A stretch of DNA of 64,000 nt from a candidate division FCPU426 bacterium (GCA_963796105.1 CAWCKJ010000010.1:39620-103619), one strand, 5' to 3'. Counted from the first letter of the stretch, positions 23,465 through 64,000 are shown. Translations and numbers: made by a program. Notes: generated by a model from the sequence alone, not told the origin.

Positions 23465-23569
23465 TGTGTTTATGTTTCCTTTCACTCTTGTCCTAAATAA
23501 AGGCCTAAAAAAAGACGCCTCCGATTGAAGTAGAATTGGGTTTGATGACAGCCCAAAGCAACGGTTACC

Positions 23570-28139: not shown

Positions 28140-28257
28140 GAAATGCAGTATAAAAGTGAAAAAAATGAAAATCCACATAAGCTTAGTGCGGGTATAATAG
28201 AAACAGGCTTGGTCATACGGGTCAAAGTCGTCATTTTTACAAACCAGCCGTATAGAG

Positions 28258-38223: not shown

Positions 38224-38234
38224 ACCCTTAACGT

Positions 38235-38834: not shown

Positions 38835-38900
38835 CTTAAGTTTGATCCATCGGGCTTTTGTGAGTTTCCCGATTCGACAATTCGTTTCAAAGGAATATCC

Positions 38901-46416: not shown

Positions 46417-47284
46417 TCGTTTACTCAAAAAGACCCCTAAGGACAGTTTAAGACAATTGGTTTTCATTTTTGGATGTCCTATAAAACATTCGCTATCGCC
46501 TTTGATGCATAACGCCGCTTTTGACCAATTAGGTCTTCCTTGGGTTTATATTCCATTGGAAATCTCAGCGGACCAATTGGGTGGCGCGGTCGGAATTCTT
46601 CGGTCATTCAACGCGAAAGGGGCCAATGTCACTGTGCCTTATAAAGAAGCGGTGATACCTTGGCTTGATTATATTGAGCCGGAAGCGAGATGGATGAAGT
46701 CAGTCAATACGATTTACCGCGTGGGTAATAAACTATGCGGAGAATCTACTGACGGCGAAGGTTTCTTAAGGTCGCTTGGGCCTTGGAGGCGAAAGTTGAA
46801 AAGATCAACAGGGCTTCTTTTAGGGGCTGGCGGAGCCGGGAAGGCAATATCGGGTGCGTTGTCTCAATCGGAAGTTAAAAGATATTATATATTTGACCAA
46901 TCGGAAGAAAAAACGAGTGCTCTTGTGAAATTGGTTCAAAAACGCAATAAGAGAATTGAGGTTGACGGAGTGTCCCGGCAAAACGCGGAGAAAGTTGTCT
47001 CTGATTGCGATTGGGTTATTCAAGCTACTTCTGCGGGGTTGAAAAAAGGGGATCCGTCTCCTTTGTCGCTAAAATTTGCACGGCCCACCACTTGGGTAGT
47101 GGACTTAATTTATCATCATCCGACTTCCTTTTTGATAGAAGCAAAAGAGAGACATTTAAAATCTTTAAACGGATTAGGAATGTTACTAAACCAAGGTGTT
47201 TTGTCCTTTCAACGCTGGACTGGCCAGAAGGCTCCCCTGAAATTTATGAAAAGAGCTTTATTGAGAGGATTAATGCTGACCTGA
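46385..47284 (+). CDS. aroE: shikimate dehydrogenase
   Basis: SxSPxMHN substrate motif (SLSPLMHNAAF), NVTVPYK, and a GAGGAGKA NADP-binding glycine loop. Confidence 0.85.
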   Translation: MRREKSRMKNNRLLKKTPKDSLRQLVFIFGCPIKHSLSPLMHNAAFDQLGLPWVYIPLEISADQLGGAVGILRSFNAKGANVTVPYKEAVIPWLDYIEPEARWMKSVNTIYRVGNKLCGESTDGEGFLRSLGPWRRKLKRSTGLLLGAGGAGKAISGALSQSEVKRYYIFDQSEEKTSALVKLVQKRNKRIEVDGVSRQNAEKVVSDCDWVIQATSAGLKKGDPSPLSLKFARPTTWVVDLIYHHPTSFLIEAKERHLKSLNGLGMLLNQGVLSFQRWTGQKAPLKFMKRALLRGLMLT

Positions 47285-47388
47285 AGACCATTATGGACAA
47301 GCGTTGACTTCAATTTTTCCCGATTCTATACTTCTTTCATTAGAGTCATTAATCCGAGTAAGAATTTCCTTCCTTTTCGAGGTAATGA

Positions 47389-49143: not shown

Positions 49144-49174
49144 CGCTTGATTTTGAAAGAAGAAAGGTGGTTTT

Positions 49175-50239
49175 ATGGTTAATATTGACACGCTTTTGCG
49201 TTTAATGTTCGAAAGAAATGCCTCCGACCTCCACATAACTGCTGGTGCCCCTCCGATGTTAAGAGTGGACGGTGTCATCACTCCCACTGAATATGAGAAA
49301 CTCAGGCCCGAGACTACTCAACAATTGATATACAGTATTTTGACGGACGAGCAGAAAGAAAAATTCGAAAAAGATAATGAATTGGATGTTTCTTTTGGGG
49401 TCGAAGGCGTAGGCCGAGTCAGGATGAATGTTTTCCAACAAAGGGGTGCTGTAGCGGCCGCTCTTAGGAATATACCCACCACTATTCGTAATTTTGATGA
49501 CCTCAAGTTGCCTGCTATTGTTCAAGATATTGTTAAATTGCCCAAAGGCCTGGTATTGGTGACCGGGCCCACGGGTTCTGGAAAATCGACGACTTTAGCG
49601 GCCATGATTGATTGGATTAACTCGAATCGTCAAAGTCATATCATCACCATTGAGGACCCGATTGAGTATGTGCACACGCATAAATCTTGTATCGTGAATC
49701 AACGGGAAGTCGGAACTGACACGCACACATTTACTTCGGCTTTAAAATATGCATTGCGGGAAGATCCGGATGTGATATTGATCGGGGAAATGCGTGACTT
49801 GGAAACGATCAATGCGGCCTTGACGATTGCAGAGACGGGACATCTGGTATTTGCGACTCTTCATACAGTGGATGCGATTCAAACGGTTAATCGCATTATT
49901 GATGTGTTCCCCGCATCTCAACAGCAACAGGTTCGGGCGCAAATATCGTTTGTCCTTCAATCTATTTTATCTCAACAGCTGCTTCCAAAGGCATATGGTT
50001 CCGGGCGTGTTGTGGCAATAGAGGTTCTTATACCAACTGCGGCAGTTCGGAATTTGATAAGGGAAGAAAAAATCCATCAAATTTATTCTGCTATGCAAAC
50101 GGGTACGGAATATGGGATGCAAACCATGAACCAAGCCCTATTTGAGCTTTATCAAAAACAACAAGTAAGTTACAACGAAATATTCTCCAGAACTTTGGAT
50201 CCGAAGGAATTGCAGCGCATGGTAAAAGGTGTCATTTAA
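49175..50239 (+). CDS. pilT: type IV pilus retraction ATPase
   Basis: PilT N-terminal signature (ASDLHITAGAPPMLRVDG), Walker A GPTGSGKSTT and AIRNLIRE motif. Confidence 0.9.
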   Translation: MVNIDTLLRLMFERNASDLHITAGAPPMLRVDGVITPTEYEKLRPETTQQLIYSILTDEQKEKFEKDNELDVSFGVEGVGRVRMNVFQQRGAVAAALRNIPTTIRNFDDLKLPAIVQDIVKLPKGLVLVTGPTGSGKSTTLAAMIDWINSNRQSHIITIEDPIEYVHTHKSCIVNQREVGTDTHTFTSALKYALREDPDVILIGEMRDLETINAALTIAETGHLVFATLHTVDAIQTVNRIIDVFPASQQQQVRAQISFVLQSILSQQLLPKAYGSGRVVAIEVLIPTAAVRNLIREEKIHQIYSAMQTGTEYGMQTMNQALFELYQKQQVSYNEIFSRTLDPKELQRMVKGVI

Positions 50240-50265
50240 TAAAATAAAAGAAAAAGGTTAATCCC

Positions 50266-51480
50266 ATGCCTCTCTTTAAATTCAAAGCTCGGAACAATTT
50301 AGGGAAGGTAACTGAGGGCACTCAGGAAGCCGAAAATGAAGCGGCTGTTGGGGCTCTATTGCGCCAGAGGCGATTAGAGGTTATTTCTGTTTCGCCCGCG
50401 AGTAGTTTTGGGGCCATTTTTGCTTCAATGCTTAAAAAAGGTGGAAATGTCAAAACCATTGACATTGTGGTATTCAGTCGACAATTCTCGACCATGATTA
50501 ACGCCGGCCTTCCTATTTTGCAGGGGTTGACGATAGTAGCGGAACAAGCCGAGAATCCCAGTTTTCGTGTCATCATGACTAAAGTCAGGGATGATATTTC
50601 TAATGGCGTCCCACTGTCAGAAGCTATGGCAAAACACCCGAAAGTTTTTTCTGCTCTTTACGTTAATATGGTTAAGGCTGGGGAACAAGGCGGTATTTTG
50701 GACGTTATTTTTGAAAGGTTGTCGGAGTATTTGGAAAAATCAGAGGGAGTAAGCCGAAAAATTAAATCCGCCATGATGTATCCCGCAGTTGTTTTTTCTG
50801 TTGCGATTTTGGTTGTGATATTTTTGATGGTAAAGGTAATTCCGACTTTCGAAACAGTATTTGCGGGTTTTGGCGCTAAGTTACCAGCTCCGACATTGGT
50901 TGTTATTGCTATCAGTCATTTTTTAACGAGCAAAAAAGCAGTTTTTATTTTGATTTTTGGAGTCGCTTTTTATGTTGCGTTACAATTATACAGAAAGACA
51001 AAAACAGGTGCGTATAATTGGGACAAAATGATGATGAGTTTACCTGTCCTTGGTGTTTTATTACGGAAGGGTGCAGTCGCTAAATTCGCTCGAACTTTGG
51101 GTACTTTGATAAAATCCGGGGTCCCAATTATGGATGGACTTGAAACAGTCGCCAAGACTTCGGGAAATTTAGTATTGGAAAGAGCGATATTCCACGCAAG
51201 AGATTCTGTGAAAGAAGGAAAAACCTTAACTCAACCACTAAAAGATAGTAATGTGTTTCCACCCATGGTGACACAAATGATCAATGTTGGGGAAGAAACA
51301 GGATCGCTAGATACCATGTTATCAAAAGTGGCTGATTTCTATGAAGATGAGGTGGATGCGGCGGTGGAAGGATTAACATCTATTATCGAGCCGATTTTAA
51401 TTGTTTTTTTAGGGGTTACCCTTGGATTTATAGTGGTGGCCATGTTTATGCCAATATTTATGTTGGGAAGTATCGTTTAA
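50266..51480 (+). CDS. pilC: type IV pilus inner-membrane platform protein (GspF/PilC family)
   Basis: Two T2SSF repeats, 3 TM helices. 404 aa. Confidence 0.9.
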   Translation: MPLFKFKARNNLGKVTEGTQEAENEAAVGALLRQRRLEVISVSPASSFGAIFASMLKKGGNVKTIDIVVFSRQFSTMINAGLPILQGLTIVAEQAENPSFRVIMTKVRDDISNGVPLSEAMAKHPKVFSALYVNMVKAGEQGGILDVIFERLSEYLEKSEGVSRKIKSAMMYPAVVFSVAILVVIFLMVKVIPTFETVFAGFGAKLPAPTLVVIAISHFLTSKKAVFILIFGVAFYVALQLYRKTKTGAYNWDKMMMSLPVLGVLLRKGAVAKFARTLGTLIKSGVPIMDGLETVAKTSGNLVLERAIFHARDSVKEGKTLTQPLKDSNVFPPMVTQMINVGEETGSLDTMLSKVADFYEDEVDAAVEGLTSIIEPILIVFLGVTLGFIVVAMFMPIFMLGSIV

Positions 51481-51683
51481 CAAAATTGTGTATTATATAA
51501 AAATATTTCGATTGTTTTCCATAAAGGGGGAATATATTAAGCAGCTAGTGGATGTTTTTTGGGCGGAGTTTTAAACTCGCAGAACTTCATACTAAACATT
51601 TACGCAAAACAAAGTTAAACAGGAGCCGTATTTTATAATAGGTTTTAAAATAAAATTCTAAGTTTTGCGATGAGGATGAAATC

Positions 51684-52784
51684 ATGAGTTTTTTTTCAAA
51701 AGGTGTTGTTGGTTTAGACATCGGAACTTCAAGTGTTAAGGTTGTTCAATTAAAACAAAATGCTGGCCAGTGGCGACTAGTTTCTATGGGAATTTCCGAA
51801 TTGCCGAAGGAAGTGCAGGAAAATGCCAATCAGGGAGCTTCGAAAAACATAATAATCGACTCCATAAAAAAACTCTTTAAAGAGAGCGGCATAAGTACAA
51901 AAAAAGTGGTGACTGCTTTATCGGGTGATTCGGTCATAATTCGCTATGTAAAACTACCTTTTATGACTAATGAGGAATTGAAGGCGGCGATTCCGAGGGA
52001 AGCGGAACAATATATCCCGCTAAACTTGGATCAGGTTGTTCTTGATTTTCAGATTTTGGGTGAAACCCAGGAAGATGGACAAAAAAAATTAGACGTATTA
52101 TTAGTTGCCGCGAAGGTTGATGTGGTTGATCAACATTTATCCCTTTTGAAATCAATTGGGTTGACGCCTTCTATTATTGATGTGGATGCGTTTGCTTTGG
52201 AAAATGCATATGAAATAAATCGAACTGAGCAGGGAGAAGAGACAATCGCTTTAATTAATCTAGGCGCATCTTTGACGACCATCAATATACTTGAGGGAAA
52301 AAATACCAGGTTTACACGTGATATTCCAGTTGCCGGAAATGATTTTACCAAAGAAATTCAAAAGGAGTTTAATTTAAAGTTTTCTGAAGCTGAAGAGCTA
52401 AAAAAGTCGCATGGCGCAATTTCCATGGAGGAAGATGATTTTAATTTATCTGCAATTACTCAAAAAGATGATCGGGTTTTGAGAATGTCAGATGTAATGA
52501 CTCCGGTGTTAAACAAACTTTTGGGCGAAATTCGACGTTCATTTGATTATTACGAAACACAATCCCGGAAGAAAACAGTTGAGCGGGTTATCCTTTTAGG
52601 GGGGAGCGCGAAATTAAAAAATGTGAATAGGTTTTTAGCGAGCAAGTTAGGCATCCCAGTAGAGAATTTCTCCGCTTTTAGGAACATCGAGGTTGGTAAA
52701 AACATTGACTCGGAACAACTATCTGAAAAAGAGGTTTATATGGGGGTCTGTTTGGGCTTAGCACTTCGGCAAACGGAATCTTAA
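51684..52784 (+). CDS. pilM: type IV pilus assembly protein PilM (actin-like ATPase fold)
   Basis: N-terminal VVGLDIGTSSVKVVQL and C-terminal ILLGGSAKL actin-fold motifs. Position upstream of pilNOPQ. Confidence 0.85.
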   Translation: MSFFSKGVVGLDIGTSSVKVVQLKQNAGQWRLVSMGISELPKEVQENANQGASKNIIIDSIKKLFKESGISTKKVVTALSGDSVIIRYVKLPFMTNEELKAAIPREAEQYIPLNLDQVVLDFQILGETQEDGQKKLDVLLVAAKVDVVDQHLSLLKSIGLTPSIIDVDAFALENAYEINRTEQGEETIALINLGASLTTINILEGKNTRFTRDIPVAGNDFTKEIQKEFNLKFSEAEELKKSHGAISMEEDDFNLSAITQKDDRVLRMSDVMTPVLNKLLGEIRRSFDYYETQSRKKTVERVILLGGSAKLKNVNRFLASKLGIPVENFSAFRNIEVGKNIDSEQLSEKEVYMGVCLGLALRQTES

Positions 52785-52787
52785 TAC

Positions 52788-53342
52788 ATGATAAGAATAA
52801 ATCTAATACCGGTTAAGGAAAAGAAGAAACGTAGAGAATTATTCATTGTTTTCTGCGTTGTGATTGTATTGGTTTTGATAGCTTTTGGTATGGCTTGGGT
52901 TTATGGTTCGCGTATGAGCGAGAAAAATAATCTCAATAAAAAGATTAAACAAGTTGAGGATGAATCGAAGGAATATGAGGAAAAAATAAACGAAGAGAAA
53001 GACCTCGAGGCCAAAGAAGCCAGTTTGGAAACATTTAAAAAGACTGTAAAAGGAGTGACGGATACACAAAGAAAAGTTCTGGTTGCCATGGATCAATTAG
53101 CTTTAAACCTTCCGGAAGGGGTTTGGCTTACTAAGGTGAGTCAAGGTCGTGATAAAGATAGTGATTTATACACTGTCGAGGGGTATTCTTATTCTGCGCA
53201 CGACTTGCAAATTTACTTGAATTCCCTCCGAAAACCAGGCGGGATGTTCAAAGATGTTCAGCTTATAACCACAGATAATATTTTATCTCTCGCTGGTAAT
53301 AAATTCAAAATAACTACAAGAGTTATGGATACCAACTCATGA
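52788..53342 (+). CDS. pilN: type IV pilus assembly protein PilN
   Basis: INLIP N-terminus (MIRINLIP), single TM, coiled-coil. Synteny. Confidence 0.7.
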   Translation: MIRINLIPVKEKKKRRELFIVFCVVIVLVLIAFGMAWVYGSRMSEKNNLNKKIKQVEDESKEYEEKINEEKDLEAKEASLETFKKTVKGVTDTQRKVLVAMDQLALNLPEGVWLTKVSQGRDKDSDLYTVEGYSYSAHDLQIYLNSLRKPGGMFKDVQLITTDNILSLAGNKFKITTRVMDTNS

Positions 53343-53884
53343 AAATCACTCCTTTACAGCAATATATAATATTGGGTGTAGTGTTTTTCGCTGGGTTAGT
53401 ATTTTTGTATTATCAATTTCTTCTAAAACCTTTGAATTCAGATATCGTGAATTTAAGAACAACTTTGGAACAAAAACAAAAAGATTTAGAAGAAGCTAAG
53501 AAAATCGTGGCTAAATATGTTGAGTTTAAAAAGCGCGCGGATTCTGTTCAAAGAGAATTGGAATACATTCAAAATAGAATCCCGAAAACAATTGACAGGG
53601 CGAAATTGATGGAGATGGTAAATTTAATCCAAGACAGGACAAGAATTGTGTTAACTAATTTTTCTTTTTCAGGAAGTCCAACATCGAAAGATTCTTGGGT
53701 GGAAATTCCAATAAAGTTATCATTCAATTCGAGTTTTAAAGGATTATTGGAATTTTTATATCAAATTAACATTTCGAATTTACTTATGATAGTTAGGGAT
53801 GTGAATATTTCCTCGCAGCTAGATCCGCTTGGAATTTATACTTTAAAAGCGGATTTGATATTAAACGGGATTCAAGCGAAATGA
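53339..53884 (+). CDS. pilO: type IV pilus assembly protein PilO
   Basis: Single N-terminal TM, coiled-coil, C-terminal ferredoxin-like domain. Synteny. Confidence 0.65.
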   Translation: MKITPLQQYIILGVVFFAGLVFLYYQFLLKPLNSDIVNLRTTLEQKQKDLEEAKKIVAKYVEFKKRADSVQRELEYIQNRIPKTIDRAKLMEMVNLIQDRTRIVLTNFSFSGSPTSKDSWVEIPIKLSFNSSFKGLLEFLYQINISNLLMIVRDVNISSQLDPLGIYTLKADLILNGIQAK

Positions 53885-54339
53885 AAATTCAAACAAAATC
53901 GAATAAAAAGATTCTTTTATTCGCCATTTTTGGAATAGGTATAACCGCGCAATATTCCGCCTTGTGCCAGCAACAAGACGTCCCGGAACCGGTTTTCATG
54001 AATTTTTCTATTCAATCTCCTTATATTCCGACTTATCATGGTCGAGATCCCTTTTACCCATTGCAACCCTATTCGTATGATATTTCTAAAAAAGTATCAA
54101 TCGCCGATTTGGATTATCGGGGGATATTAAGTTTAGGTGACAAGGATATGGCTTTATTCTCTTGGAAGCACGATGGCAATTACAGATTCTTATTAAAATC
54201 CAGAAAATTGTATTGTAGTTCAAACAGTACAAAAAGTTCAAACGAACAGGTTGTTGATGGTATTGTGGGGGACATTACTGGCACCGAAGTTGTTTTAATA
54301 CAGGGCGAGCAAAAGATTGTTTTTTCCAGAAGAAAATAA
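53881..54339 (+). CDS. pilP: type IV pilus assembly protein PilP (putative, lipoprotein-like)
   Basis: Signal peptide and small beta domain. Position between pilO and pilQ. Confidence 0.45.
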   Translation: MKIQTKSNKKILLFAIFGIGITAQYSALCQQQDVPEPVFMNFSIQSPYIPTYHGRDPFYPLQPYSYDISKKVSIADLDYRGILSLGDKDMALFSWKHDGNYRFLLKSRKLYCSSNSTKSSNEQVVDGIVGDITGTEVVLIQGEQKIVFSRRK

Positions 54340-56752
54340 AGGAGTTTTATTAATGCCAAGAAAACGCAAGAAAACGGGAACGATTTTATTTTTTGCTTTG
54401 ATGTTCCTCATGCCGTGTTTTCTTTTGTGGGCAGGTGATGCCATAGAAATTGATTTAAGTAATGAATCTTCAACATCGAAACCCACTCCAACGCAGGTTG
54501 CGGTCAACAAAATTCCTCCAAACCAAACTAAAACAAATCTTAAAAACACGGAAAGCCAATTAACAGCGGTTTCTGCGCGCAATAAAACAAAATCAATTAT
54601 AAACAAAGTTGAAATTAAGGCGGAGGGAGAACAGACCACTCTTCTTATAAAAGGAGAAGGTCTTGTCAATAAACCCGAGGTGAAAATTATTTCTAAAACC
54701 AAAATATTGGTAACTTTTGCGAATGCGAAACTACATTTACCCAAAAAAATCACCGAGAATAAAAATCGCATAAAAACAATAAGATCTGATGCTCACGGGA
54801 AATCAGCATGGATTGTTATTGACGCCAATGGGATTAAATCCGCGACTGCAGAAAAATCCGATGATGGGTTTGCGGTTATTTTGAACGCGGGAAGTAATAC
54901 TGAAATGGACGGAAAGCTTTTGGGAAAATCCGGGTTGAACAACGAATCCACCCCAACCGCACCTTCTTTGGAAAAAAGAATATTCTCCCGTTTGACGGAT
55001 TTTTCGATAAAGCCGAGCGATAAAGGGATAAAAGTTGTATTGACTTCCGACGGCCCGGCCAAATACAACATTAGAAAAATTGGCCAACCCGAAAGATTGG
55101 TTGTATGGTTCCACAATACGAAACTAGATGTTTCTGCAAAAGAGAAAATATATAAAAACGATGATTTGGAATTGAAAAAAGGGGGATTAATTTCGATCGC
55201 GTTGCGGCAAATAGGGAAAGGGTTTTCGCCCATATCAGACGTTACTTTAATGTTGATTCCCGGAACAGTCTACAAAGTCGATCGAGATTTAAATCAAGTA
55301 GTCATTTCCTTGACTTCGCCCCCTCCTTCTGAAAAATCAAGTGAAACTGAAAAAAACGCAGAAAGAAAAGGGAACTTAAACCAATTGGTTTCTATGGATA
55401 TTGAATCGGCAGATTTATCCACTGTTTTAAAAAATATAGCTATTGAGTCTGGCTTCAGTAATGTCGATTTTGTGGGAGGCGCGATATTTGGTGTTGTAAA
55501 CGAGAAGTTTAAGGATGTCCCTTTGAAAACCGCTCTGGCTATTTTATTGACGCCGGGAAATTATGATTATGAAGTTCAAGGCAATACGTTGAGAGTAGGG
55601 CCGATAGCATCTCTGAGGGCTACTAAGAGTATCATGCCACATGTAACGGAAATCTTAAGTCCCTCCGGGGGGATGAATCTCGGGCAGTTTGATAGCTTGG
55701 TAAAATCCATTCTAAAGCCAACCAACGCAATCCAAACCAGCCCTGACTCAGTCCGCAATGTATTGGTTTTAAATGGAACGGTTTCTGATATTGAAGAATA
55801 CAAGCGAGCCATAAAGGATTTAAAACTCGATGAAAACACATCCGGTGATAGAATCACGCGAGTTGTAAAATTGAATTATGCTGATCCAACGCAAATGATA
55901 CTTATTTTAAGCGCTTATTTGACTCCTGTGGGCAAAGTGCAGCAAGATCCGCGGACAAACGATCTGGTGATATGGGAAGTCGCAAGCAATATGGGGGTGC
56001 TTTTAGAGTTGATCAAGGAAATTGATGTTAAATCGCCTCAAGTGTTACTCGAAACAAACATGGTAGAAGTTCAAGATGAAAAAGATTTAAATCTTGGAGT
56101 TGATTTAGCTTTAACAAGACAAGTTGGCGATCCGCAAATAAATGCGAATTACGTTAACCCGGCAACTAATAATCCTGGATTTTTCGGGATCCAAACGCTT
56201 CGAAGCGGTATTAATCTCAGTGCTCAATTGTCGGCTGCGGAAGCCAGGAAAAAAGCGAAAATCATCTCAAGGCCCAGAGTTGCCACGGCCAACGGAGTCG
56301 CCGCGGAGATTGACACTGTCGAGAATGTCGTCATTGAAAATACTACACAAACCATCAACCAAAATGTCATAACTTATCAAACTAATTTTACACAATTGCC
56401 GTTGCCGATAAATTTAAAGGTAACACCTCGAATCACGGACGATGGAAGAATAACCACCAATATGGCTGTGACAGTAACTTCTCAAACAGGACCAGTCGTG
56501 GTTGCTCCTCAAACTGGGGCTCAGGGACCCCCGCCAACAAGCGTTCAGGACACCAATACTACGATTACAACAAAAAATGGCGAAACTATTGTTATCGGTG
56601 GTCTTGTGCGTTACACGGTTCAGGATTCCATGAGTGGAATTCCTCTTTTATCAAGCTTGCCAATTATTGGCACTCTCTTCCAGAATAGGACTTATACCAA
56701 TCAGAAAGTTGAATTGGTGATATTTATTACTCCCACCTTGCTGGAAGATTAA
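54317..56752 (+). CDS. pilQ: type IV pilus secretin PilQ
   Basis: C-terminal secretin domain (IVIGGLVRYTVQDSMSGIPLLSSLPIIGTLF...VELVIFITPTLL). N-terminal AMIN-like repeats and N0/N1 domains. Likely start at ATG 54353. Confidence 0.85.
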   Translation: MFFPEENKGVLLMPRKRKKTGTILFFALMFLMPCFLLWAGDAIEIDLSNESSTSKPTPTQVAVNKIPPNQTKTNLKNTESQLTAVSARNKTKSIINKVEIKAEGEQTTLLIKGEGLVNKPEVKIISKTKILVTFANAKLHLPKKITENKNRIKTIRSDAHGKSAWIVIDANGIKSATAEKSDDGFAVILNAGSNTEMDGKLLGKSGLNNESTPTAPSLEKRIFSRLTDFSIKPSDKGIKVVLTSDGPAKYNIRKIGQPERLVVWFHNTKLDVSAKEKIYKNDDLELKKGGLISIALRQIGKGFSPISDVTLMLIPGTVYKVDRDLNQVVISLTSPPPSEKSSETEKNAERKGNLNQLVSMDIESADLSTVLKNIAIESGFSNVDFVGGAIFGVVNEKFKDVPLKTALAILLTPGNYDYEVQGNTLRVGPIASLRATKSIMPHVTEILSPSGGMNLGQFDSLVKSILKPTNAIQTSPDSVRNVLVLNGTVSDIEEYKRAIKDLKLDENTSGDRITRVVKLNYADPTQMILILSAYLTPVGKVQQDPRTNDLVIWEVASNMGVLLELIKEIDVKSPQVLLETNMVEVQDEKDLNLGVDLALTRQVGDPQINANYVNPATNNPGFFGIQTLRSGINLSAQLSAAEARKKAKIISRPRVATANGVAAEIDTVENVVIENTTQTINQNVITYQTNFTQLPLPINLKVTPRITDDGRITTNMAVTVTSQTGPVVVAPQTGAQGPPPTSVQDTNTTITTKNGETIVIGGLVRYTVQDSMSGIPLLSSLPIIGTLFQNRTYTNQKVELVIFITPTLLED

Positions 56753-56775
56753 TTTTATCCTTGTTTGTAAATTGA

Positions 56776-56809
56776 TAAGCGTCTTTATAATAAAGACGCT
56801 TATTTTTTT
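56776..56809 (+). terminator. intrinsic terminator after pilQ
   Basis: TAAGCGTCTTTA-taa-TAAAGACGCTTA perfect 12-bp stem followed by TTTTTTT. Confidence 0.75.
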
Positions 56810-56899
56810 GCAGGATTTGTGATTCAAACCTTAATTAGAAAACCTATACACACAATTCATTAGGATTAACTTGTAGCCCGATAATCTTTTAAAAAGGAT

Positions 56900-58069
56900 T
56901 TGACCTTGGGAATTCGATTCTTAACCTCTGGAGAGTCACACGGAAAGGGTTTGATCGCCATACTGGAGGGATTTCCTTCTAACCTCGCCGTTTCAGTTGA
57001 TGACATTAATACGGAGCTCGCCCGCCGGCAGAAAGGTTATGGGCGTGGCGGTAGGATGAAAATTGAAAAAGATCAAGTGGAAATTTTATCTGGAGTGAGA
57101 AAGGGCATCACGCTGGGTTCGCCGATTGCGTTATTGATTAATAACCTTGATTATGAAAACTGGCGAAAAATAATGACCCCTAACTTAGAGGACGCTTTTA
57201 ATGCGAGTTCTGTTCAGCGACCACGACCTGGCCATGCTGATCTTCCCGGGGGTATCAAATACAACCAGAACGACTTGAGAAACATATTGGAGAGAGCCAG
57301 TGCACGCGAGACTGCCATAAGGGTTGCAGCAGGCGCCGTGGCTAAGAAATTTTTAACCCAATTTGGGATTTCCATTCAAAGCCATGTGATTCAACTGGGT
57401 GCGGTAAAGGTCAATCAACGAAAGTTACGGTTACAAAAAATCAATCAATTGGCAGATCGTTCTCCTGTGAGAATGTTGGAAGAAAATGCATCGAGAAAAG
57501 CCGTGTCTCAGATCGATCAGTCGCGGGAAAAAGGCAATACCCTTGGGGGTGTCTTTGAAATCGTTGCTACTGGGGTTCCGGTTGGTATTGGCAGCCATGT
57601 TCAATGGGATAGGAAATTAGACGCACGGTTAGCATATTCCTTGATGAGTATGCAAGCCATTAAAGGCGTTGAGATAGGCCGGGGTTTTGAAAACGCTGGT
57701 AAATTAGGTTCGGAAGTCCATGATGAAATTATGTTCACTAAAAAAAGAGGATTTTACCATTTCACTAATAATGCCGGAGGAATAGAAGGCGGAATTTCCA
57801 ACGGAGAACCTATTGTGTTACGGGCTGCCATGAAGCCGATTTCAACACTTCGGCGACCTCTTCGTTCCATCAATATTCAGACCAAGAAAATCGTCAAGGC
57901 GACTTATGAAAGATCCGATATATGCGCATTGCCCGCGGCTTCGATCATTGGAGAGGCATTATGCGCTTGGGTTTTAGCCGACGGTTTCATGGAAAAATTC
58001 GGGGGTGATTTTATGGAGGAAATCCTTAAACGCCACCAAATATATTTAAACCATATCAAACGGTACTAA
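56900..58069 (+). CDS. aroC: chorismate synthase
   Basis: GESHG and RPGHADL motifs and conserved C-terminal region. 389 aa. The start may be a TTG. Confidence 0.9.
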   Translation: MTLGIRFLTSGESHGKGLIAILEGFPSNLAVSVDDINTELARRQKGYGRGGRMKIEKDQVEILSGVRKGITLGSPIALLINNLDYENWRKIMTPNLEDAFNASSVQRPRPGHADLPGGIKYNQNDLRNILERASARETAIRVAAGAVAKKFLTQFGISIQSHVIQLGAVKVNQRKLRLQKINQLADRSPVRMLEENASRKAVSQIDQSREKGNTLGGVFEIVATGVPVGIGSHVQWDRKLDARLAYSLMSMQAIKGVEIGRGFENAGKLGSEVHDEIMFTKKRGFYHFTNNAGGIEGGISNGEPIVLRAAMKPISTLRRPLRSINIQTKKIVKATYERSDICALPAASIIGEALCAWVLADGFMEKFGGDFMEEILKRHQIYLNHIKRY

Positions 58070-58077
58070 ATTTTCTC

Positions 58078-58593
58078 ATGATTCCCCATGATAACATCAT
58101 CTTAGTTGGTTTTATGGGTTCTGGAAAAACGACCACAGGTAAAGAATTGGCGCAGTTGATCCGGTACAATTTCTGGGATATTGATCACTGGATTGAGGAA
58201 AAAAATTTCAAGAAAGTCAGCGACATATTCCGTGATGAGGGTGAAGCTTCATTTCGAATTCAAGAAAAAGAAGCTATCCAATGGTTTACAGGAAGGAAAA
58301 AATACGTAGTTTCAACAGGTGGAGGTATTTGGATTAATGAAGAGAATCGTAAGCAGCTGTTGGAATTGGGTTTGTGTATATGGCTAAAAGTATCGCCCAA
58401 ACAGGTTTTTGATAGGATCAAACATAGTTTGCCTCAGAGGCCGCTTTTGGCGAGGGAGCCGGACCCATTGAAAAAGATTACAGAACTGATGGAAATGAGA
58501 AATGTCTTCTATGAACAAACGCAATTCTCGATAAATACTGACGGAAAACAGCCCAAAGAAGTCGCAATCGAAATAGAAAAAATATTGGAATGA
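58078..58593 (+). CDS. aroK: shikimate kinase
   Basis: P-loop GFMGSGKTT, DxD and LID region. 171 aa. pilQ-aroK-aroB-type synteny. Confidence 0.9.
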   Translation: MIPHDNIILVGFMGSGKTTTGKELAQLIRYNFWDIDHWIEEKNFKKVSDIFRDEGEASFRIQEKEAIQWFTGRKKYVVSTGGGIWINEENRKQLLELGLCIWLKVSPKQVFDRIKHSLPQRPLLAREPDPLKKITELMEMRNVFYEQTQFSINTDGKQPKEVAIEIEKILE

Positions 58594-58810
58594 TCATAGC
58601 GAAATAGCTTCTCTGGTCTTTTAAAATTTATCATTGATTTTTTATATCTTCTACAGGGTTCACGGCAAAACTCATGCAATGAGGGAATATTTTATTAAGA
58701 CGTGAATTGCGACATTTTCTGAAGGTGTGAGCCGCTTTTAACTCTTGGAACTTTTTCAAATTTGAAAATTATTATTGTTTATTAGACAAAATAGTTAAAG
58801 GGCTATACAA

Positions 58811-59917
58811 ATGAAAATTGTTCCAGTGAAACTTTTAGAAACTCATTACGATATAATCATCGGCGAAAATGCATTGGCAAACTCGCATAAATACATTCCG
58901 GGAGTAATTCCCGGGAATAAAATACTCGTCATTACAACGGGAAACATTTATAAAAAATACGGGGCTAAACTCTGGGGAAGCCTGAAAAAAACAAGAAAAG
59001 CAATAATCTTTCACCTGATTCCGGACGGGGAAGTTTACAAAAACCAAAAATATTTATTTTATTTGTTAAATATGATGTCTAAAACAAGATTGCAAAGAGA
59101 TTGCGGCATTATCGCGTTTGGTGGTGGAGTGATTGGCGATTTGACGGGTTTTGCCGCTTCCATCTATATGCGCGGAATTAAGTTTGTCCAGTGTCCTACA
59201 ACCCTGCTGGCACAAGTTGATGCCAGTATCGGGGGAAAAACGGCTGTTGATTATTATGGTGTCAAAAATCTGATAGGTTCTTTTTATCAGCCAAATCTTG
59301 TATTAACCGATATAAGTGTTTTAAAAACTCTGGATAAAAGACAATTCAGGACTGGTTTGGCGGAAATCATAAAACATGGAATTATTCTCGATCCGAAATT
59401 GTTCAATTATTTGGAATTGAATCTTGATAAAGCATTAAACCGAAATCCTAAAATTTTGCTGACGATTATTGCTAGATCTTGTGAAATAAAAGCTGGGATC
59501 GTTTCTAAGGATGAGAAGGAATCGGGAATTCGGATGTGGCTAAATTATGGCCATACTTTCGGCCATGCCTTGGAATCATACTTTAAATATAAGATAGTAA
59601 CTCATGGAGAAGCGGTTGCTTATGGAATGCGATTGGCTTCTTTGGTTTCGCTGCGTTTAAACCTTTGCGGTCCTGAGGTTGTGGCTCGTCAATATGATTT
59701 ATTAAAAAGAGCTGGATTGTTTCGCAAAGTTCCCCATTTTGAGTTAAATGAAATTTATCAAAAAATGTTCCTGGATAAAAAGGCAAGAAACGGCGGAATC
59801 CAATTTGTATTGACAAGAAAAATCGGTCTTGTTAGCATTCATAAAAGTGTGTCAAAATCCGTTCTTTTTTCGGCTTTAAATCAACTTCAAAATGAATTGA
59901 GAGAGAATTATAACTGA
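58811..59917 (+). CDS. aroB: 3-dehydroquinate synthase
   Basis: GGGVIGDLTGFAA NAD-binding motif and H-x3-H metal ligands (GHTFGHALE). 368 aa. Confidence 0.9.
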   Translation: MKIVPVKLLETHYDIIIGENALANSHKYIPGVIPGNKILVITTGNIYKKYGAKLWGSLKKTRKAIIFHLIPDGEVYKNQKYLFYLLNMMSKTRLQRDCGIIAFGGGVIGDLTGFAASIYMRGIKFVQCPTTLLAQVDASIGGKTAVDYYGVKNLIGSFYQPNLVLTDISVLKTLDKRQFRTGLAEIIKHGIILDPKLFNYLELNLDKALNRNPKILLTIIARSCEIKAGIVSKDEKESGIRMWLNYGHTFGHALESYFKYKIVTHGEAVAYGMRLASLVSLRLNLCGPEVVARQYDLLKRAGLFRKVPHFELNEIYQKMFLDKKARNGGIQFVLTRKIGLVSIHKSVSKSVLFSALNQLQNELRENYN

Positions 59918-59918
59918 A

Positions 59919-61214
59919 ATGCCCAAGGACTCCCATACGTCGGAAATAAACGAACTTAAAAAAAAGATGGAAGAAAACCCGGATTCATTGGTATTTGCTC
60001 TTTTAGCAGATGCTTACCGCAAAGAAGGCGATTTAGTTCAAGCGCAAGAAATTTGTCAAAAGGGCCTCCAAAAACATCCCAACCATACAATTGCTAAAAT
60101 CGTGTTAGGCAGGATATTCCAGGGCCAAAATAAAGTTGACGATGCGTCGCTGGAATATAAACAAGTCCTTGAAGCGGATCCGGAAAATATTATGGCTCAT
60201 TCTCTTCTTGGCTCACTTCACGTCCAAAAAAAAGAATATCAAGAAGCTATTGAGGAATTCCAAAAAGTATTAACGCTGAATCCAGATGATGAGGAGGCTC
60301 CAATTGCGTTAAAGGAAGCAATCGAGAGAGCGGCGATTGAACAGCAAAATAACATTAAAACCTCCAATAAAGAAGCCGCCCAAACCAACGTGAAAAATCC
60401 AACGAAAGAAAGTAATGCCACAATAACCTTGGCAGAGCTTTACATTAAGCAAAATCATTTTGATAAGGCGATCGAGGTCTTTCAAGAGCTTTTGGCTAAT
60501 GATCCTCAAAATCTTATGCTCCGACAAAAGCTTTCGGATGCCGTTGAAAGACACCAAAAAGATTCCGCCGTAGGGCCTATAGTGACTAAGCTTAAAAAAA
60601 ATGAATTCACCCAACCGCCGGATCATAAAGAGGATGTTTTGGTAGAAGAACAAAAATCCGAGACTAAAAAGTATCCGAAGAAAAAGGAAGATGATTCTAA
60701 GTTTACAAATGAGGATATCCTACAAGTCATGCGACGTGGCGGCAAAGATGACATTATGGAGGAAGAAAAGACCATTCCGAGTATGAAGAAAAAAGATGAC
60801 CTTATGCCCGTCTCTCAAGAGGGGGCGGAAAAAAATACTAACCCTAAATGGAATGCCAAAAATAATGTTGAATTAAAGAGCATTTTGGGGGAACTGGGAA
60901 GCGTTGATGGAATCATCGATTGCTTTTTAATAGATTTGAATGGAAATCTCGTTGTTTCAACGGATGAATCAGGTAATAATGCTGTTTTGGGAAAACAAAT
61001 AAATACTATATTTGATAGTATCACTAAATCCGTTAATAAGTTAAATCAAGGGAATTCGCAGCAAATATTAATAACCTCTGACTCCGGGCACATACAGTTG
61101 GTCTCTTTTCCAGAGTTGATATTAATTGTATTGACCAATAACAAAATAAATTTGGGTTTTTTGAGGCTAACTTTAGATTCGGTCCGAAAGAAAATGGAAA
61201 AAGTAATAAAGTAG
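59919..61214 (+). CDS. TPR-repeat protein with C-terminal Roadblock/LC7 (MglB-like) domain
   Basis: N-terminal ~200 aa of TPR repeats, a K/E-rich linker, and C-terminal ~110 aa with the Roadblock pattern (GIIDCFLIDLNGNLVVST...ILITSDSGHIQLVSFPELILIVLTN). Confidence 0.6.
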   Translation: MPKDSHTSEINELKKKMEENPDSLVFALLADAYRKEGDLVQAQEICQKGLQKHPNHTIAKIVLGRIFQGQNKVDDASLEYKQVLEADPENIMAHSLLGSLHVQKKEYQEAIEEFQKVLTLNPDDEEAPIALKEAIERAAIEQQNNIKTSNKEAAQTNVKNPTKESNATITLAELYIKQNHFDKAIEVFQELLANDPQNLMLRQKLSDAVERHQKDSAVGPIVTKLKKNEFTQPPDHKEDVLVEEQKSETKKYPKKKEDDSKFTNEDILQVMRRGGKDDIMEEEKTIPSMKKKDDLMPVSQEGAEKNTNPKWNAKNNVELKSILGELGSVDGIIDCFLIDLNGNLVVSTDESGNNAVLGKQINTIFDSITKSVNKLNQGNSQQILITSDSGHIQLVSFPELILIVLTNNKINLGFLRLTLDSVRKKMEKVIK

Positions 61215-61258
61215 AATATTTTTCAAAATTTAAAAAGGGTTTAAATTAAGGTTTAAAA

Positions 61259-61618
61259 ATGGATTTTAAAAAAATATTAGAGGAAACAATTTTGAGCGTC
61301 GAAGGCGCCATTGGCGCTGGATTGGTAGGCATGGATGGAATAGTCATCGATCAAATCTCCAAAAATTCAACATTTGACATCAACGCGGTGGGCGCGGAAT
61401 ATTCAAGCATTATTAAAAACGCCTTGAAGGCTTCCTCGAATTTCGGTTTGGGAAACACTACTGAAATATTGATTACGACTGATAAGGCAACCATGATCAT
61501 GATGATGGTAGGCCAGAATTATTTCATTACCTTGGCCCTTAACCTGGATGGAAATTTAGGAAGAGGCCGGCTGGAGTTAAAGAAATCCATCCCCAAGTTT
61601 GAAAAAGAGTTAACCTAA
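61259..61618 (+). CDS. Roadblock/LC7-domain protein (MglB-like)
   Basis: 119 aa. VEGAIGAGLVGMDGIVID ... ILITTDKATMIMMMVGQNYFITLAL matches the Roadblock/LC7 fold pattern. Confidence 0.6.
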   Translation: MDFKKILEETILSVEGAIGAGLVGMDGIVIDQISKNSTFDINAVGAEYSSIIKNALKASSNFGLGNTTEILITTDKATMIMMMVGQNYFITLALNLDGNLGRGRLELKKSIPKFEKELT

Positions 61619-61620
61619 AG

Positions 61621-62460
61621 TTGGTCCATTCGGAATCAAATTTCTCTCAAACAGATCCCTTCGATCCGGAATTGTTGAAATATACCGGGATTAAAAATGT
61701 GTTTAAGTCCTGGTTTTGGAGAAGTTACGACCATTTAGGGCATATTATTCTTTACAATTTTATTTGGGCGGGCTGTCTCACTTGCTTGGATTATTTCGTT
61801 TGGAACAGGGGGTGGTGCGGCTCTTGGCAGAAGTTAAATACCCCCGTTATTTTCGTATTGTTCTTATTTAACAGCGGCATTTCAGTTGGCTGGGCCTATA
61901 TTATCTTTAAAATCATCAACGAAAGAACCGCGAATATTAAGGATTATTTTATTGGCGTTAAAAGCTATTTGATTAAGGCGTTGGGTATCACGGGAATAAC
62001 TTTCCTCCTATTCTTGATCGCATATTATGATTTTTTGTTTTATATCACTCTTTTGAATCGTCAGAATATCCTTGTTTATCTAACATTTGGTTTGACAACT
62101 TGGATTTTATTGTTTCTTGCATGCTGCACTCTCTATCAATTTCCCTTATTGTTTTTTCAGGACCCTCCCTTTTGGAAAATATATTATCGCTCTGGAATTT
62201 TAGTGATCGGAAATATTTGGCTAGCCCTCTTTATGGTTATCTTCTTTTTAATCTCTTTTAGCCTCTTTATGGCGGTGCCGGTAGCGTGGTTTTTTGGCGG
62301 TTTGGCTTATTTCTTTTCGTTCCAATGTGTAGTGCTTGAAAAGAGTTTGATTAAGTATAAAATAACATTTAGAGACAGGCCTTTGCGGGAATTCCTTCAA
62401 TTTTTAGAGACGGAAAATAACAGGGGGTGGCGTCAATTTTTCCGCCCTTGGGAGCATTGA
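61621..62460 (+). CDS. hypothetical polytopic membrane protein (DUF624/YesL-like?)
   Basis: About 6 TM helices, Trp/Phe-rich. Stop overlaps the ftsB-like start. Confidence 0.4.
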   Translation: MVHSESNFSQTDPFDPELLKYTGIKNVFKSWFWRSYDHLGHIILYNFIWAGCLTCLDYFVWNRGWCGSWQKLNTPVIFVLFLFNSGISVGWAYIIFKIINERTANIKDYFIGVKSYLIKALGITGITFLLFLIAYYDFLFYITLLNRQNILVYLTFGLTTWILLFLACCTLYQFPLLFFQDPPFWKIYYRSGILVIGNIWLALFMVIFFLISFSLFMAVPVAWFFGGLAYFFSFQCVVLEKSLIKYKITFRDRPLREFLQFLETENNRGWRQFFRPWEH

Positions 62461-62747
62461 TGAACCGACCGATAAGATGGGGCATGCTTTTTACCATAGG
62501 AATCATTGCGTATCTACTGGTCAGCGGAAATCGCGGGATATGGAATTTGTATCAAATGCACGATGAGAAAGTGAAACTGAAATTGGATGTCCAGAATTTA
62601 GAAACCGAAATTCTCAGGAATCAAATGGAATACAAATCATTTGGGAAAAGCAACTCAAGTTTCGAGAAACAGGCCCGGGAGGATTTAAACCTAATTAAGC
62701 CAGGGGAAATAGAATATAAATTCGCTTCCTCCAATGGTAACCGTTGA
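62460..62747 (+). CDS. ftsB: septum formation initiator family protein (FtsB/DivIC-like)
   Basis: Short N-terminus, one TM (FTIGIIAYLLVSG), then a coiled coil (YQMHDEKVKLKLDVQNLETEILRNQ) ending LIKPGEIEYKF, typical of FtsB. Confidence 0.55.
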   Translation: MNRPIRWGMLFTIGIIAYLLVSGNRGIWNLYQMHDEKVKLKLDVQNLETEILRNQMEYKSFGKSNSSFEKQAREDLNLIKPGEIEYKFASSNGNR

Positions 62748-62917
62748 TATCCATCCATTAAACTTAATTGACATCCTAGCATTAGCCGGTTATCTTACAT
62801 TTTCTTGAATTTTTCCTTTTAAACAGTAAAAATTATTCATATTGGTTTTTGATTTGTTTTCATGTTTTGAGCTTTAATTTTGCCTTTATGACTTGCGATT
62901 TTTGATAAAAAATGAAG

Positions 62918-63005
62918 GCCGAGATGGCGGAACTGGCAGACGCAAGGGACTTAAAATCCCTCGGGCCTAAAGCCCGTCCCGGTTCGATTCCGGGTCTCGG
63001 CACCA
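62918..63005 (+). tRNA. tRNA-Leu (anticodon UAA)
   Basis: Cloverleaf by hand: acceptor GCCGAGA/UCUCGGC, D-arm GCGG/CGC, anticodon loop CUUAAAA, long variable arm (GGGCCUAAAGCCCG), T-arm CCGGUUCGAUUCCGG, 3' ACCA. Confidence 0.85.
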
Positions 63006-63038
63006 AGAATAGCTATGGCACTTTAAGTGCCAAAAAGA

Positions 63039-63115
<77 letters not shown>

Positions 63116-63121
63116 ACGGAA

Positions 63122-63150
63122 AAGCCGCCCATGAGGGCGGCTTTTTTTTT
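63122..63150 (+). terminator. intrinsic terminator after tRNA genes
   Basis: AAGCCGCCC-atga-GGGCGGCTT stem followed by a 9-T run. Confidence 0.8.
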
Positions 63151-63208
63151 AATGTGGGAACTTTTTATAGGCCCGTTGAATTTGTTTTTCAGTCGACCTT
63201 TTTAATAT

Positions 63209-64000
63209 TTGGCATTTAACGCTAATCAAACCATTCGGAGTAAATGTTTGCGAACTTCAGCCTCGATTGCGCATTGGCTGCCTTATTTGGGGAAGTATTT
63301 AGAAAACCTCGTTCTTTTAGAAGATGGAGCATCCGAGCTTTTCAGACTATCCCTTTTGGGGAAAAAGTTAATTTCTTCCCGTTTGACGGAGCCCATTTGG
63401 GGTTATCAGGATATCCATTATCCTTTTAAACCTTTTCACGAACATCTATTGAAACAAGGTTTGAAAAAAGCGAGAAACCAGAATGTTTATGGACTCAAGG
63501 CGGATTGCGTATATTACCGGGAGGATTTGGGTAAAATACTTTTTATTATTTCCCGAGGGGTTAAAAACGGGGTTAGCGACTCAAATGTTGTTAAAGGCGG
63601 GGCAAAATATAAAGTTTCCTTTCTCATGGAAAATACGCACTCCGTCGAGGTTAAATATTTAAACCATCATTTTGATGTGAAAGTACCGCAAGTGGGCAGA
63701 TTTATATTGGAAAAAGGACTCAGGCTAAAGAGGAATCGGATAATAAAACCAGCCTTGATTTTTTGGCTGGCGAGGGATTTGACCAATATTATGGAATTAA
63801 TGATCAATCACCGGGAACTACAAAATGAGGCATTAATGGATATGTCTGAAATACGGCCCTCCAGTTTGATCAAACAATTTCTGACGAACTTAAAATCCAA
63901 CGGTCCCGGTTCAGTTGTTTGGGAATCAGCTCAAAAATTATTTTTGGAAAACCACCCAAATGAGAAAATCGTCCTGGTGACCAGCTGGTATTGGAAATTT
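63209..64000 (+). CDS. hypothetical protein, 5' partial view (runs off window end)
   Basis: Frame 2 is open from 63206 to the window end (over 260 codons) with no ATG near the 5' end (possible TTG at 63209 or 63248). Sequence is protein-like (…GYQDIHYPFKPFHEHLLKQGLKKARNQNVYGLKADCVYYREDLGKILF…). The track ORF 63244-63429 is in another frame and is probably spurious. Confidence 0.4.
   Translation, partial: MAFNANQTIRSKCLRTSASIAHWLPYLGKYLENLVLLEDGASELFRLSLLGKKLISSRLTEPIWGYQDIHYPFKPFHEHLLKQGLKKARNQNVYGLKADCVYYREDLGKILFIISRGVKNGVSDSNVVKGGAKYKVSFLMENTHSVEVKYLNHHFDVKVPQVGRFILEKGLRLKRNRIIKPALIFWLARDLTNIMELMINHRELQNEALMDMSEIRPSSLIKQFLTNLKSNGPGSVVWESAQKLFLENHPNEKIVLVTSWYWKF

Follow-up and report, generated by a model that had tools for sequence, protein, structure and literature searches.

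The Roadblock/LC7 proteins MglB and MglC of Myxococcus xanthus are the closest described counterparts of two adjacent genes, here called ORF1 and ORF2, in a 64,000-nucleotide stretch of DNA (the window) from a candidate division FCPU426 bacterium (GCA_963796105.1 CAWCKJ010000010.1:39620-103619). In Myxococcus, MglB is the GTPase-activating protein (GAP) and guanine nucleotide exchange factor of the small GTPase MglA, and MglC is part of the polarity system that directs motility by type IV pili. MglC represents the 'MglB_orphan1' subfamily and has lost MglA binding and GAP activity (PMC4719450). Two patches of MglC serve its known contacts, F25/D26/I28 binding MglB and K104/R106/R110 binding RomR's C-terminal helix (PMC10329633; PMC12719032). 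Orphans account for 328 of 749 MglB-family genes (PMC4316618), and McLoon (2016) reported that every genome with a MglC-type orphan also encodes a group-1 MglA and that MglC does not bind MglA (PMC4719450). A further protein of this circuit, the MglA-GTP effector SgmX (MXAN_5766), licenses pilus formation (PMC7519303) and is a homolog of Bdellovibrio Bd2492 (PMC3983030). The ORF1-ORF2 pair described here is a two-gene module of the MglB/MglC kind and not a categorically new system.

A preliminary description of this locus had recognized a fusion of tetratricopeptide repeats (TPRs) to a Roadblock domain through a K/E-rich linker, a stand-alone Roadblock protein and a polytopic membrane protein (ORF3), and Pfam, AlphaFold2 (AF2) and Foldseek analyses agree with it on all of these features and on the coordinates of the three open reading frames (ORFs). 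Each of the three has many homologs and they are therefore real genes rather than chance ORFs. Our preferred reading, in which we place about even confidence, is that ORF1 and ORF2 form a cytoplasmic Roadblock-on-Roadblock scaffold in a polarity circuit whose MglA-type GTPase would be encoded elsewhere. The features concerned are as follows; aa stands for amino acids, TM for transmembrane and pLDDT for the predicted local distance difference test.

59919..61214, + strand: ORF1, TPR / disordered linker / Roadblock protein, 431 aa (Pfam, homologs, AF2, Foldseek)
59925..60569, + strand: ORF1 TPR array, aa 3-217, 11 helices, pLDDT ~90-96 (Pfam TPR_2, AF2)
60690..60734, + strand: ORF1 linker motif, aa 258-272 (conservation, AF2 helix 264-272)
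60855..61208, + strand: ORF1 Roadblock/LC7 domain, aa 313-430 (AF2, Foldseek, hhalign)
61259..61618, + strand: ORF2, MglC-family Roadblock protein, 119 aa (7CT3 match, hhalign, Robl_LC7)
61621..62460, + strand: ORF3, membrane protein with 6 TM helices, 279 aa (AF2, profile relatives)

The strict pairing of the two Roadblock genes emerged from a scan of GTDB species representatives with ORF1, which gave 36 loci labelled candidate division FCPU426, Firestonebacteria, Goldiibacteriota or unclassified metagenome-assembled genomes, together with three independent loci seeded with ORF2 homologs; gene order was checked by tblastn of the window proteins against all loci and with an iterated ftsB hidden Markov model (HMM). 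Whether the locus was seeded with ORF1 or with ORF2, the two genes are adjacent in 41/41 FCPU426-group loci. Wherever upstream sequence is present ORF1 is preceded by aroB, except in L030, where no aroB was detected, and ORF2 is followed, directly or past ORF3, by ftsB in every complete locus of both clades but L034, in which no ftsB-like ORF lies within 1.5 kb after the MglC-like gene (11183-11551 and downstream). Clade A (ORF1 44-79% identical), joined by L046 and L048, shows the full order pilMNOPQ-aroCKB-ORF1-ORF2-ORF3-ftsB. Clade B (ORF1 30-39% identical) instead has (accC)-ThiD2-ThiC-x-aroB-ORF1-ORF2-ftsB and lacks ORF3, aroC, aroK and any nearby pil genes. ThiD2-ThiC is found upstream in the window too, so that the two clades share a colinear wider region and differ in the pil block. 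The co-occurrence of all three genes, which the preliminary description had treated as one set, thus holds for ORF1 and ORF2 but not for ORF3, which is confined to clade A, L046 and L048. Median identities to the proteins of the window (clade A / clade B) were:

ORF2: 90% / 69%
PilM: 80% / -
AroC: 67% / -
ORF1: 57% / 34%
AroB: 54% / 44%
PilQ: 51% / -
FtsB: 48% / 25%
ORF3: 39% / absent; the least conserved gene

ORF2 is the most conserved gene of the neighbourhood across loci ranging from 38 to 64% GC and is under strong purifying selection. The strength of this constraint fits a small hub protein with several binding surfaces, or one whose whole surface is used. With ORF2, MglC-type proteins are on record in an unrelated candidate phylum, where the constraint on them is very strong.

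By its sequence, ORF2 is best filed as an MglC-family (MglB_orphan1) Roadblock adaptor. In a search of all PDB sequences it matched M. xanthus MglC (MXAN_5770, 7CT3) from end to end (1-118 to 1-120, E=5.2e-20); the next Roadblock match had E=2.6e-4 and MglB was not listed at E<=10. The ORF2 family aligned with 46 myxobacterial MglC sequences at 99.4% (hhalign, E=3.6e-21) and with MglB at 15.9%, and a myxobacterial MglC HMM matched all ORF2 orthologs at ~1e-20. We found 735 ORF2 homologs. ORF2 and MglC are of nearly the same length (119 versus 120 aa) and each has a single Roadblock domain; that of ORF2, of ~120 aa, lacks the C-terminal extension of MglB. The residues of the MglC patches that bind partner proteins are also kept, F25 excepted. 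The counterpart of F25-D26-x-I28 reads [M/T]-D-G-I in 37/37 orthologs, D26, G27 and I28 being invariant and the F25 position being M in clade A and T in clade B, and the RomR-binding cleft (K104/R106/R110 in MglC) has its basic residues at R102, R104 and K108 of ORF2, which are invariant in 37/37 orthologs within the string G-N-L-G-R-G-R-L-E-[LV]-K-K. Neither gene adjoins mglA, and both lie downstream of pilMNOPQ with efp-accBC in the vicinity. The differences are that ORF2 is only 30-34% identical to MglC, has lost the phenylalanine at position 25, is always preceded by the TPR-Roadblock gene where Myxococcus has a lipoprotein gene, is followed by ftsB rather than efp, and is far more conserved inside its phylum.

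For the partner gene, ORF1, we found 340 homologs; the full-length ones, of ~430 aa, number over 100. Its TPR array was matched by TPR families at up to 83 bits (Pfam TPR_2), and in the AF2 model, built from 57 homologs, the segment 219-312 that follows is disordered except for one short helix at 264-272. The 95-aa linker contains 18 K, 12 E and 9 D, and in clade B it is Pro/Ala/Lys-rich. Within it stands the motif D-D-S-K-F-T-N-E-D-I-L-Q-V-M-R (aa 258-272), in which K261 and M271 are kept in 103/103 sequences, T263 and L268 in 101/103 and I267 in 100/103. Median identities for the parts of ORF1 (clade A / clade B) were:

Motif, aa 258-272: 87% / 53%
TPR array: 62% / 41%
Roadblock domain: 51% / 32%
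Flanking linker: 28-54% / 6-9%

The motif appears as an island of conservation in a disordered linker, a pattern typical of short linear docking motifs. The preliminary description had passed over this invariant 11-residue motif of the linker, as well as the constancy of ftsB downstream and the exceptional conservation of ORF2. The N-terminus of ORF1, MPKDSHTSEINELKKK, has no signal peptide, no lipobox and is not hydrophobic, and the protein is predicted to be cytoplasmic.

The preliminary description expected both ORFs to match the Robl_LC7 HMM (PF03259). ORF2 does so over the cutoff (33.1 bits, aa 9-92) and, like ORF1, also matches MAPKK1_Int (the MP1 family), but the C-terminus of ORF1 (aa 322-423) reached only 18.6 bits, under the Robl_LC7 cutoff of 23, and was assigned by MAPKK1_Int at 25.6 bits (cutoff 25); PF03259 is carried by many ORF1 orthologs in precomputed annotation. 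The modelled domain, aa 313-430, has an a-b-b-a-b-b-b-a fold at pLDDT 80-91 and was superimposed by Foldseek on the Asgard Roadblock protein 9JUE (TM-score 0.90, root-mean-square deviation 1.4 A) and on M. xanthus MglB 6HJM/6IZW (0.85-0.88, 1.7-1.9). In hhalign profile comparisons it was found related to the ORF2 family at 96.2% (E=2.6e-9) and to MglB at 91.6% (E=8e-7); it is not related to the myxobacterial MglC family (23.5%). We regard it as a divergent domain of the MglB/MglC superfamily, probably paralogous to ORF2.

The match to MglB is driven by the final strand and helix ('LIVLANxKINLGLLRLALDSAxKKL' against 'LVVIFDNRTSLGLVRLRIKKASDEL' in MglB), which, with the Roadblock fold, is the likeness to 6HJM, 6IZW and 3T1Q (pattern 'LxVLAxxxINLGxLRLxL'). 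Near helix a2 the ORF1 family consensus is xLGKQAxxIFxSTxxSV, and the hhalign alignment to MglB, whose small residues A64/G68 on this helix permit MglA docking, is unreliable there. A [D/E]-G-I motif like that of MglC is present in the domain. R416 of ORF1 aligns with MglB R115, a residue modelled as touching MglC D26/I28, but the same arginine is found in MglC (R106) and ORF2 (R104), and we rejected it as a sign of an MglC contact. ORF1 also shares with MglB an acidic helix on a flexible tether; however, in ORF1 this helix is N-terminal to the Roadblock domain, helix a3 closes the protein (aa 430 of 431) with no acidic C-terminal helix after it, a TPR array is fused to it, and the gene is not within four genes of mglA. 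In MglB the C-terminal helix binds MglA allosterically (PMC6785124). Homology between the two helices was considered and rejected, as the ORF1-family HMM scored the MglB tail at -1.6 bits, below 1,136/5,000 shuffles and 627 natural ORFs. A regular expression spanning the ORF1 motif and the MglB C-terminal helix found 41 matches in 800,936 residues, 41/41 being ORF1 orthologs, but the expression was written post hoc and we do not count its specificity because the test is circular. The likeness of the two helices would thus be a physico-chemical analogy alone.

Two other polarity proteins resemble parts of ORF1. RomR, with its receiver domain, Pro-rich linker and acidic C-terminal helix, has the same succession of folded N-terminal module, long disordered linker and short conserved acidic helix, and it is the RomR helix that binds the basic cleft of MglC, the cleft conserved in ORF2 (PMC12719032). 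ORF1, in contrast, has neither a receiver domain nor sequence homology to RomR, and its helix is internal with the Roadblock domain after it. SgmX and Bd2492 are cytoplasmic TPR proteins of the Roadblock/MglA polarity circuit, but SgmX, of 1,060 aa, has 14 TPRs, of which the C-terminal ones bind MglA-GTP, and lacks a Roadblock domain, whereas ORF1 has ~5 TPRs and a Roadblock domain; orthology of the TPR arrays was rejected, the similarity being of the generic TPR kind (25-28% over 110-150 aa, pairwise E=2e-5). The only Roadblock fusion mentioned by Wuichet and Sogaard-Andersen (2014) is receiver-Roadblock (PMC4316618), and no TPR-Roadblock fusion was found in the literature searched. The order TPR, acidic helix, Roadblock domain is thus a partner architecture without earlier description, to which an MglC-type protein is hard-wired in these bacteria. 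As two adjacent Roadblock paralogs, ORF1 and ORF2 also suggest a Roadblock-on-Roadblock assembly of the kind seen in Ragulator/LAMTOR and other stacked Roadblock dimers, although those complexes are eukaryotic and bound to the Rag GTPases and the resemblance is at the level of the fold alone.

In the mechanism that we propose, an ORF2 dimer would dock on the Roadblock domain of ORF1 in the manner of the Myxococcus MglB2-MglC2-MglB2 stack, and, as an alternative or in addition, the basic cleft of ORF2 could capture the acidic amphipathic helix that ORF1 carries on its flexible tether, much as MglC captures the RomR helix. The TPR array, which would serve to bind other proteins, may tether the scaffold to a polar or divisome-proximal landmark, a client or the pilus machine, and a distal MglA-type GTPase would modulate the stack; ORF3 would stay outside the core scaffold. 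If the pair binds as predicted, it would offer a simpler two-gene system in which to study the recruitment of stacked Roadblock dimers, and it would test whether Roadblock stacks work without a dedicated GTPase, a question relevant to how Roadblock/GTPase modules evolved, as far as the eukaryotic Ragulator.

The genomic setting in Myxococcus is relevant to this proposal. In a complete Myxococcus genome the order is pilD-pilS2-pilR2-pilMNOPQ, a gene for a 214-aa lipoprotein, mglC, efp, accB, accC, a gene for a 1057-aa TPR protein, then genes for an AAA protein and TamB. The 1057-aa protein is SgmX (PMC7519303), so that mglC comes second after pilQ, with sgmX four genes further on. The lipoprotein gene between pilQ and mglC (MXAN_5771-like) was considered as a counterpart of ORF1 and rejected, as its product is a lipoprotein with no similarity to ORF1 and no Pfam match. 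The efp-accB-accC genes that adjoin mglC in Myxococcus are found in the window at 37666-40271, ~21 kb from ORF2 with the pil block between; the clade-B distance from accC to the MglC-like gene is ~7 kb. The other places noted for these genes are L045 10499-13163 and L049 1-628. Both phyla thus have mglC linked to pilMNOPQ and to efp-accBC, with ftsB the constant neighbour inside this one, and the comparison points to an ancient gene neighbourhood, common to the phyla, that comprised pil genes, mglC, efp-accBC and a gene for a TPR protein. The position of mglC behind pilMNOPQ appears old, which gives some support to the idea of a role in pilus polarity.

The preliminary description had also noted that no MglA-type GTPase was in view, and this was borne out. 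A six-frame P-loop scan of the window returned PilB, PilT and AroK alone, and the Myxococcus MglA sequence, validated against 6HJH, gave no tblastn match in the loci and no phmmer match at E<=1 when every ORF of 50 aa or more was searched in 826 kb, comprising the window and ~10 kb around the genes in the 41 loci. The same loci contain no Roadblock genes beyond the two. Past ftsB and the tRNA genes, L006, L009 and L048 encode an unknown protein, a short-chain dehydrogenase/reductase (SDR), folBK, a YfhO-like protein, metF, a cyclic nucleotide monophosphate-binding protein and tilS, and no GTPase; the open frame that leaves the 3' end of the window (~63205-64000, + strand) is an ortholog of the unannotated protein of ~180-270 aa that follows the tRNAs in these three loci. 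Because the orthologous loci show other genes there, a canonical mglA immediately beyond the window, which would have made the arrangement conventional, is very unlikely. ORF2 is accordingly not coupled to mglA in the window or in the surveyed loci. Since MglC-type genes are uncoupled from mglA and MglC does not bind MglA, the absence of a neighbouring mglA is expected rather than anomalous. The literature on FCPU426 and Goldbacteria yielded nothing on motility or GTPases.

The placement of the pair directly downstream of pilBTC, pilMNOPQ and aroC/K/B and upstream of ftsB, as first described, agrees with Pfam assignments of these genes, including a DivIC match of 47.4 bits for ftsB. The neighbouring features are:

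56774..56804, + strand: terminator-like hairpin in the pilQ/aroC gap, 14-bp stem and T-run, the likely end of the pilMNOPQ transcript
56900..58069, + strand: aroC, chorismate synthase (Pfam Chorismate_synt on the identical Logan gene; colinear in clade A)
58078..58593, + strand: aroK, shikimate kinase (Pfam SKI; P-loop GFMGSGKT)
58811..59917, + strand: aroB, 3-dehydroquinate synthase (Pfam DHQ_synthase)
62460..62747, + strand: ftsB/divIC, 95 aa (Pfam DivIC)
62918..63115, + strand: tRNA-Leu(UAA) and tRNA-Met(CAU), conserved after ftsB in clades A and B (blastn)
63118..63147, + strand: terminator-like hairpin after tRNA-Met, 13 bp, 7 GC, T-run, the likely end of the aroC-to-tRNA unit

Of 22 clade-A loci, at least 13 have the hairpin and T-run at this same place between pilQ and aroC (besides the window, L009, L010, L012-L014, L016, L017, L020, L022, L025, L027 and L028), and, because the position and pairing are kept while the stem sequences differ, it is probably a genuine intrinsic terminator. 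We infer from the sequence a transcription unit of which aroC is the first gene. This puts the Roadblock genes in a unit that runs from aroC to the tRNAs, with at least partial insulation from pilMNOPQ. Within it the junctions are tight: one nucleotide separates the aroB TGA from the ORF1 ATG, a 44-nucleotide spacer with an AAGG ribosome-binding site precedes ORF2, two nucleotides separate the ORF2 TAA from the TTG start of ORF3, and the ORF3 stop overlaps the ftsB start (TGATG). The tRNA-Leu(UAA)/tRNA-Met pair directly after ftsB is kept across the whole group, and three independent Logan assemblies of the same organism stop ~200 nucleotides after ftsB, just before the tRNA genes.

ORF3 was at first presented as a membrane protein of unknown family and the only nearby candidate partner. 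It matched no Pfam family directly, and a search for a direct Pfam or NCBIfam assignment gave nothing significant, a weak MusI match being the sole return (3/18 close members matched NCBIfam MusI weakly). AF2 predicts an all-helical protein with six TM helices (predicted TM-score, pTM, 0.79). A profile built from its 17 close relatives reached 553 representatives at E<=1e-3, and 7 of 53 remote profile relatives matched Pfam DUF624 (PF04854; best E=3.8e-8), although none of the 18 close members attained the DUF624 gathering score. The family is thus no longer blank: ORF3 is a candidate divergent DUF624/YesL/MusI-like protein by a transitive and distant relationship, similar to that group in being a membrane protein of ~250-280 aa with six TM helices, different in that it and its 17 close relatives fall below every Pfam and NCBIfam threshold and have motifs of their own. 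These clade-specific motifs, SWFWRxYDHLG and RGWRxFxxPWE, probably lie with both termini on the cytoplasmic side, judging by the six TM helices and the positive-inside rule. The partner role did not stand, as ORF3 is poorly conserved and missing from clade B; it appears to be an accessory lineage-specific gene rather than the partner of the Roadblock pair.

Several observations weigh against the preferred reading of ORF1-ORF2 as a polarity scaffold. No GTPase was found within ~10 kb in any of the 41 loci, and its presence elsewhere in these genomes is our assumption. F25 of the FDI patch is replaced by M or T in ORF2, the acidic motif of ORF1 has no detectable homology to the MglB C-terminal helix, and the arginine shared by ORF1 (R416), MglB (R115) and MglC (R106) is not specific evidence of contact because it is conserved family-wide. 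For the pilus in particular, the suggestion of a pilus-regulation module gains from the MglC homology of ORF2 and from the position of mglC after pilMNOPQ in Myxococcus, but clade B keeps both Roadblock genes without pil genes nearby and a conserved terminator stands between the unit and pilMNOPQ, so that a pilus-specific role is not secured. Physical interaction of ORF1 with ORF2, a polarity role and a distal GTPase would each follow from the analogy with Myxococcus.

The near-universal adjacency of ftsB suggests another explanation, which we consider rather unlikely, namely that ORF1-ORF2 is a division-linked, GTPase-independent module that works with FtsB and the divisome, for example by marking the division site or the newborn pole. 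The ftsB/DivIC gene follows ORF2 in both clades (L034 excepted) at GC contents of 38-64%, genes are packed tightly up to the TGATG overlap into ftsB, the terminator sets the unit apart from the pil genes, and the failure to find a GTPase within ~10 kb in 41 loci is matched by the inability of MglC to bind MglA (PMC4719450). However, Myxococcus mglC is not adjacent to ftsB, and gene order can persist without a functional link, aroB and the two tRNAs being equally conserved neighbours. We know of no Roadblock protein that acts in the divisome. MglC-type genes have, moreover, been reported in MglA-containing genomes alone (PMC4719450). A bolder version, which we hold as a speculation with a fairly small chance of being right, is that in FCPU426, Firestonebacteria and Goldbacteria the MglC-type adaptor and the TPR-Roadblock fusion form a minimal polarity or division-site scaffold without any small GTPase, its co-expression with FtsB serving to mark new poles during cytokinesis and ORF1 merging into a single chain the roles that are split in Myxococcus among MglB (Roadblock), RomR (acidic helix) and SgmX (TPR).

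The membrane protein offers a different route to independence from a GTPase, in that the Roadblock pair might signal to or from ORF3 instead. ORF3 starts two nucleotides past the ORF2 stop and overlaps the ftsB start, its conserved motifs are probably cytoplasmic, and it is present in all clade-A loci as well as L046 and L048; yet it is missing from all clade-B loci, where both Roadblock genes are kept, its median identity is 39% against 90% for ORF2, and the broad DUF624/YesL-like family of 553 representatives has no known link to Roadblock proteins, which makes this explanation very unlikely. The location of a TPR protein downstream of pilQ could also indicate a periplasmic or outer-membrane pilotin of the PilF/PilW/Tgl type for the PilQ secretin, and NCBIfam gives weak TPR-level matches to PilW (49.6 bits, cutoff 154), Tgl (36.3, cutoff 225) and GltE. 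All of these are far under the cutoffs, the N-terminus MPKDSHTSEINELKKK lacks a signal peptide or lipobox, the Roadblock domain is of a cytoplasmic type, and ORF1 is kept where pil genes are not nearby; a PilW/Tgl identity was therefore rejected as contradicted by the sequence, and we give this explanation almost no chance of being correct.

Elsewhere in the window, a stand-alone PilZ-domain protein of 125 aa is encoded at 3346-3723 (+ strand; PF07238, 42 bits); it is a possible c-di-GMP (cyclic diguanylate) receptor, and its gene is the sole other signalling-type gene of the window that could relate to pilus control. The pilO gene is a single 181-aa ORF here (53339-53884) and two ORFs (70 aa and 91 aa) in L001/L003/L047, which come from a Logan assembly of the same organism (ERR11523656); the split reflects either an error of assembly or a frameshift or stop at strain level. 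The first ~37 kb, with genes for an SDR, an old yellow enzyme (OYE), hemH, glycosyltransferases and asnB, has a third-codon-position GC content (GC3) of 0.60-0.70 and contains transposase-like ORFs at 12105-13535 (- strand), 14858-16038 (- strand) and 22058-24776, whereas in the pil/aro/Roadblock region (45000-64000) GC3 is 0.30-0.50, resembling relatives' orthologous loci (0.38-0.45 GC). The contrast between 1-37000 and 45000-64000 could reflect an acquired island or a chimeric assembly join. At 26223-28307 (- strand) there is a 694-aa fusion of HEM4 (uroporphyrinogen-III synthase) and URO-D (uroporphyrinogen decarboxylase) beside ferrochelatase (24906-25886), and at 40333-41388 (+ strand) a 2-phosphosulfolactate phosphatase (ComB-like) domain bears a lysine-rich low-complexity tail of ~120 aa, the site of spurious matches to the P-loop regular expression.

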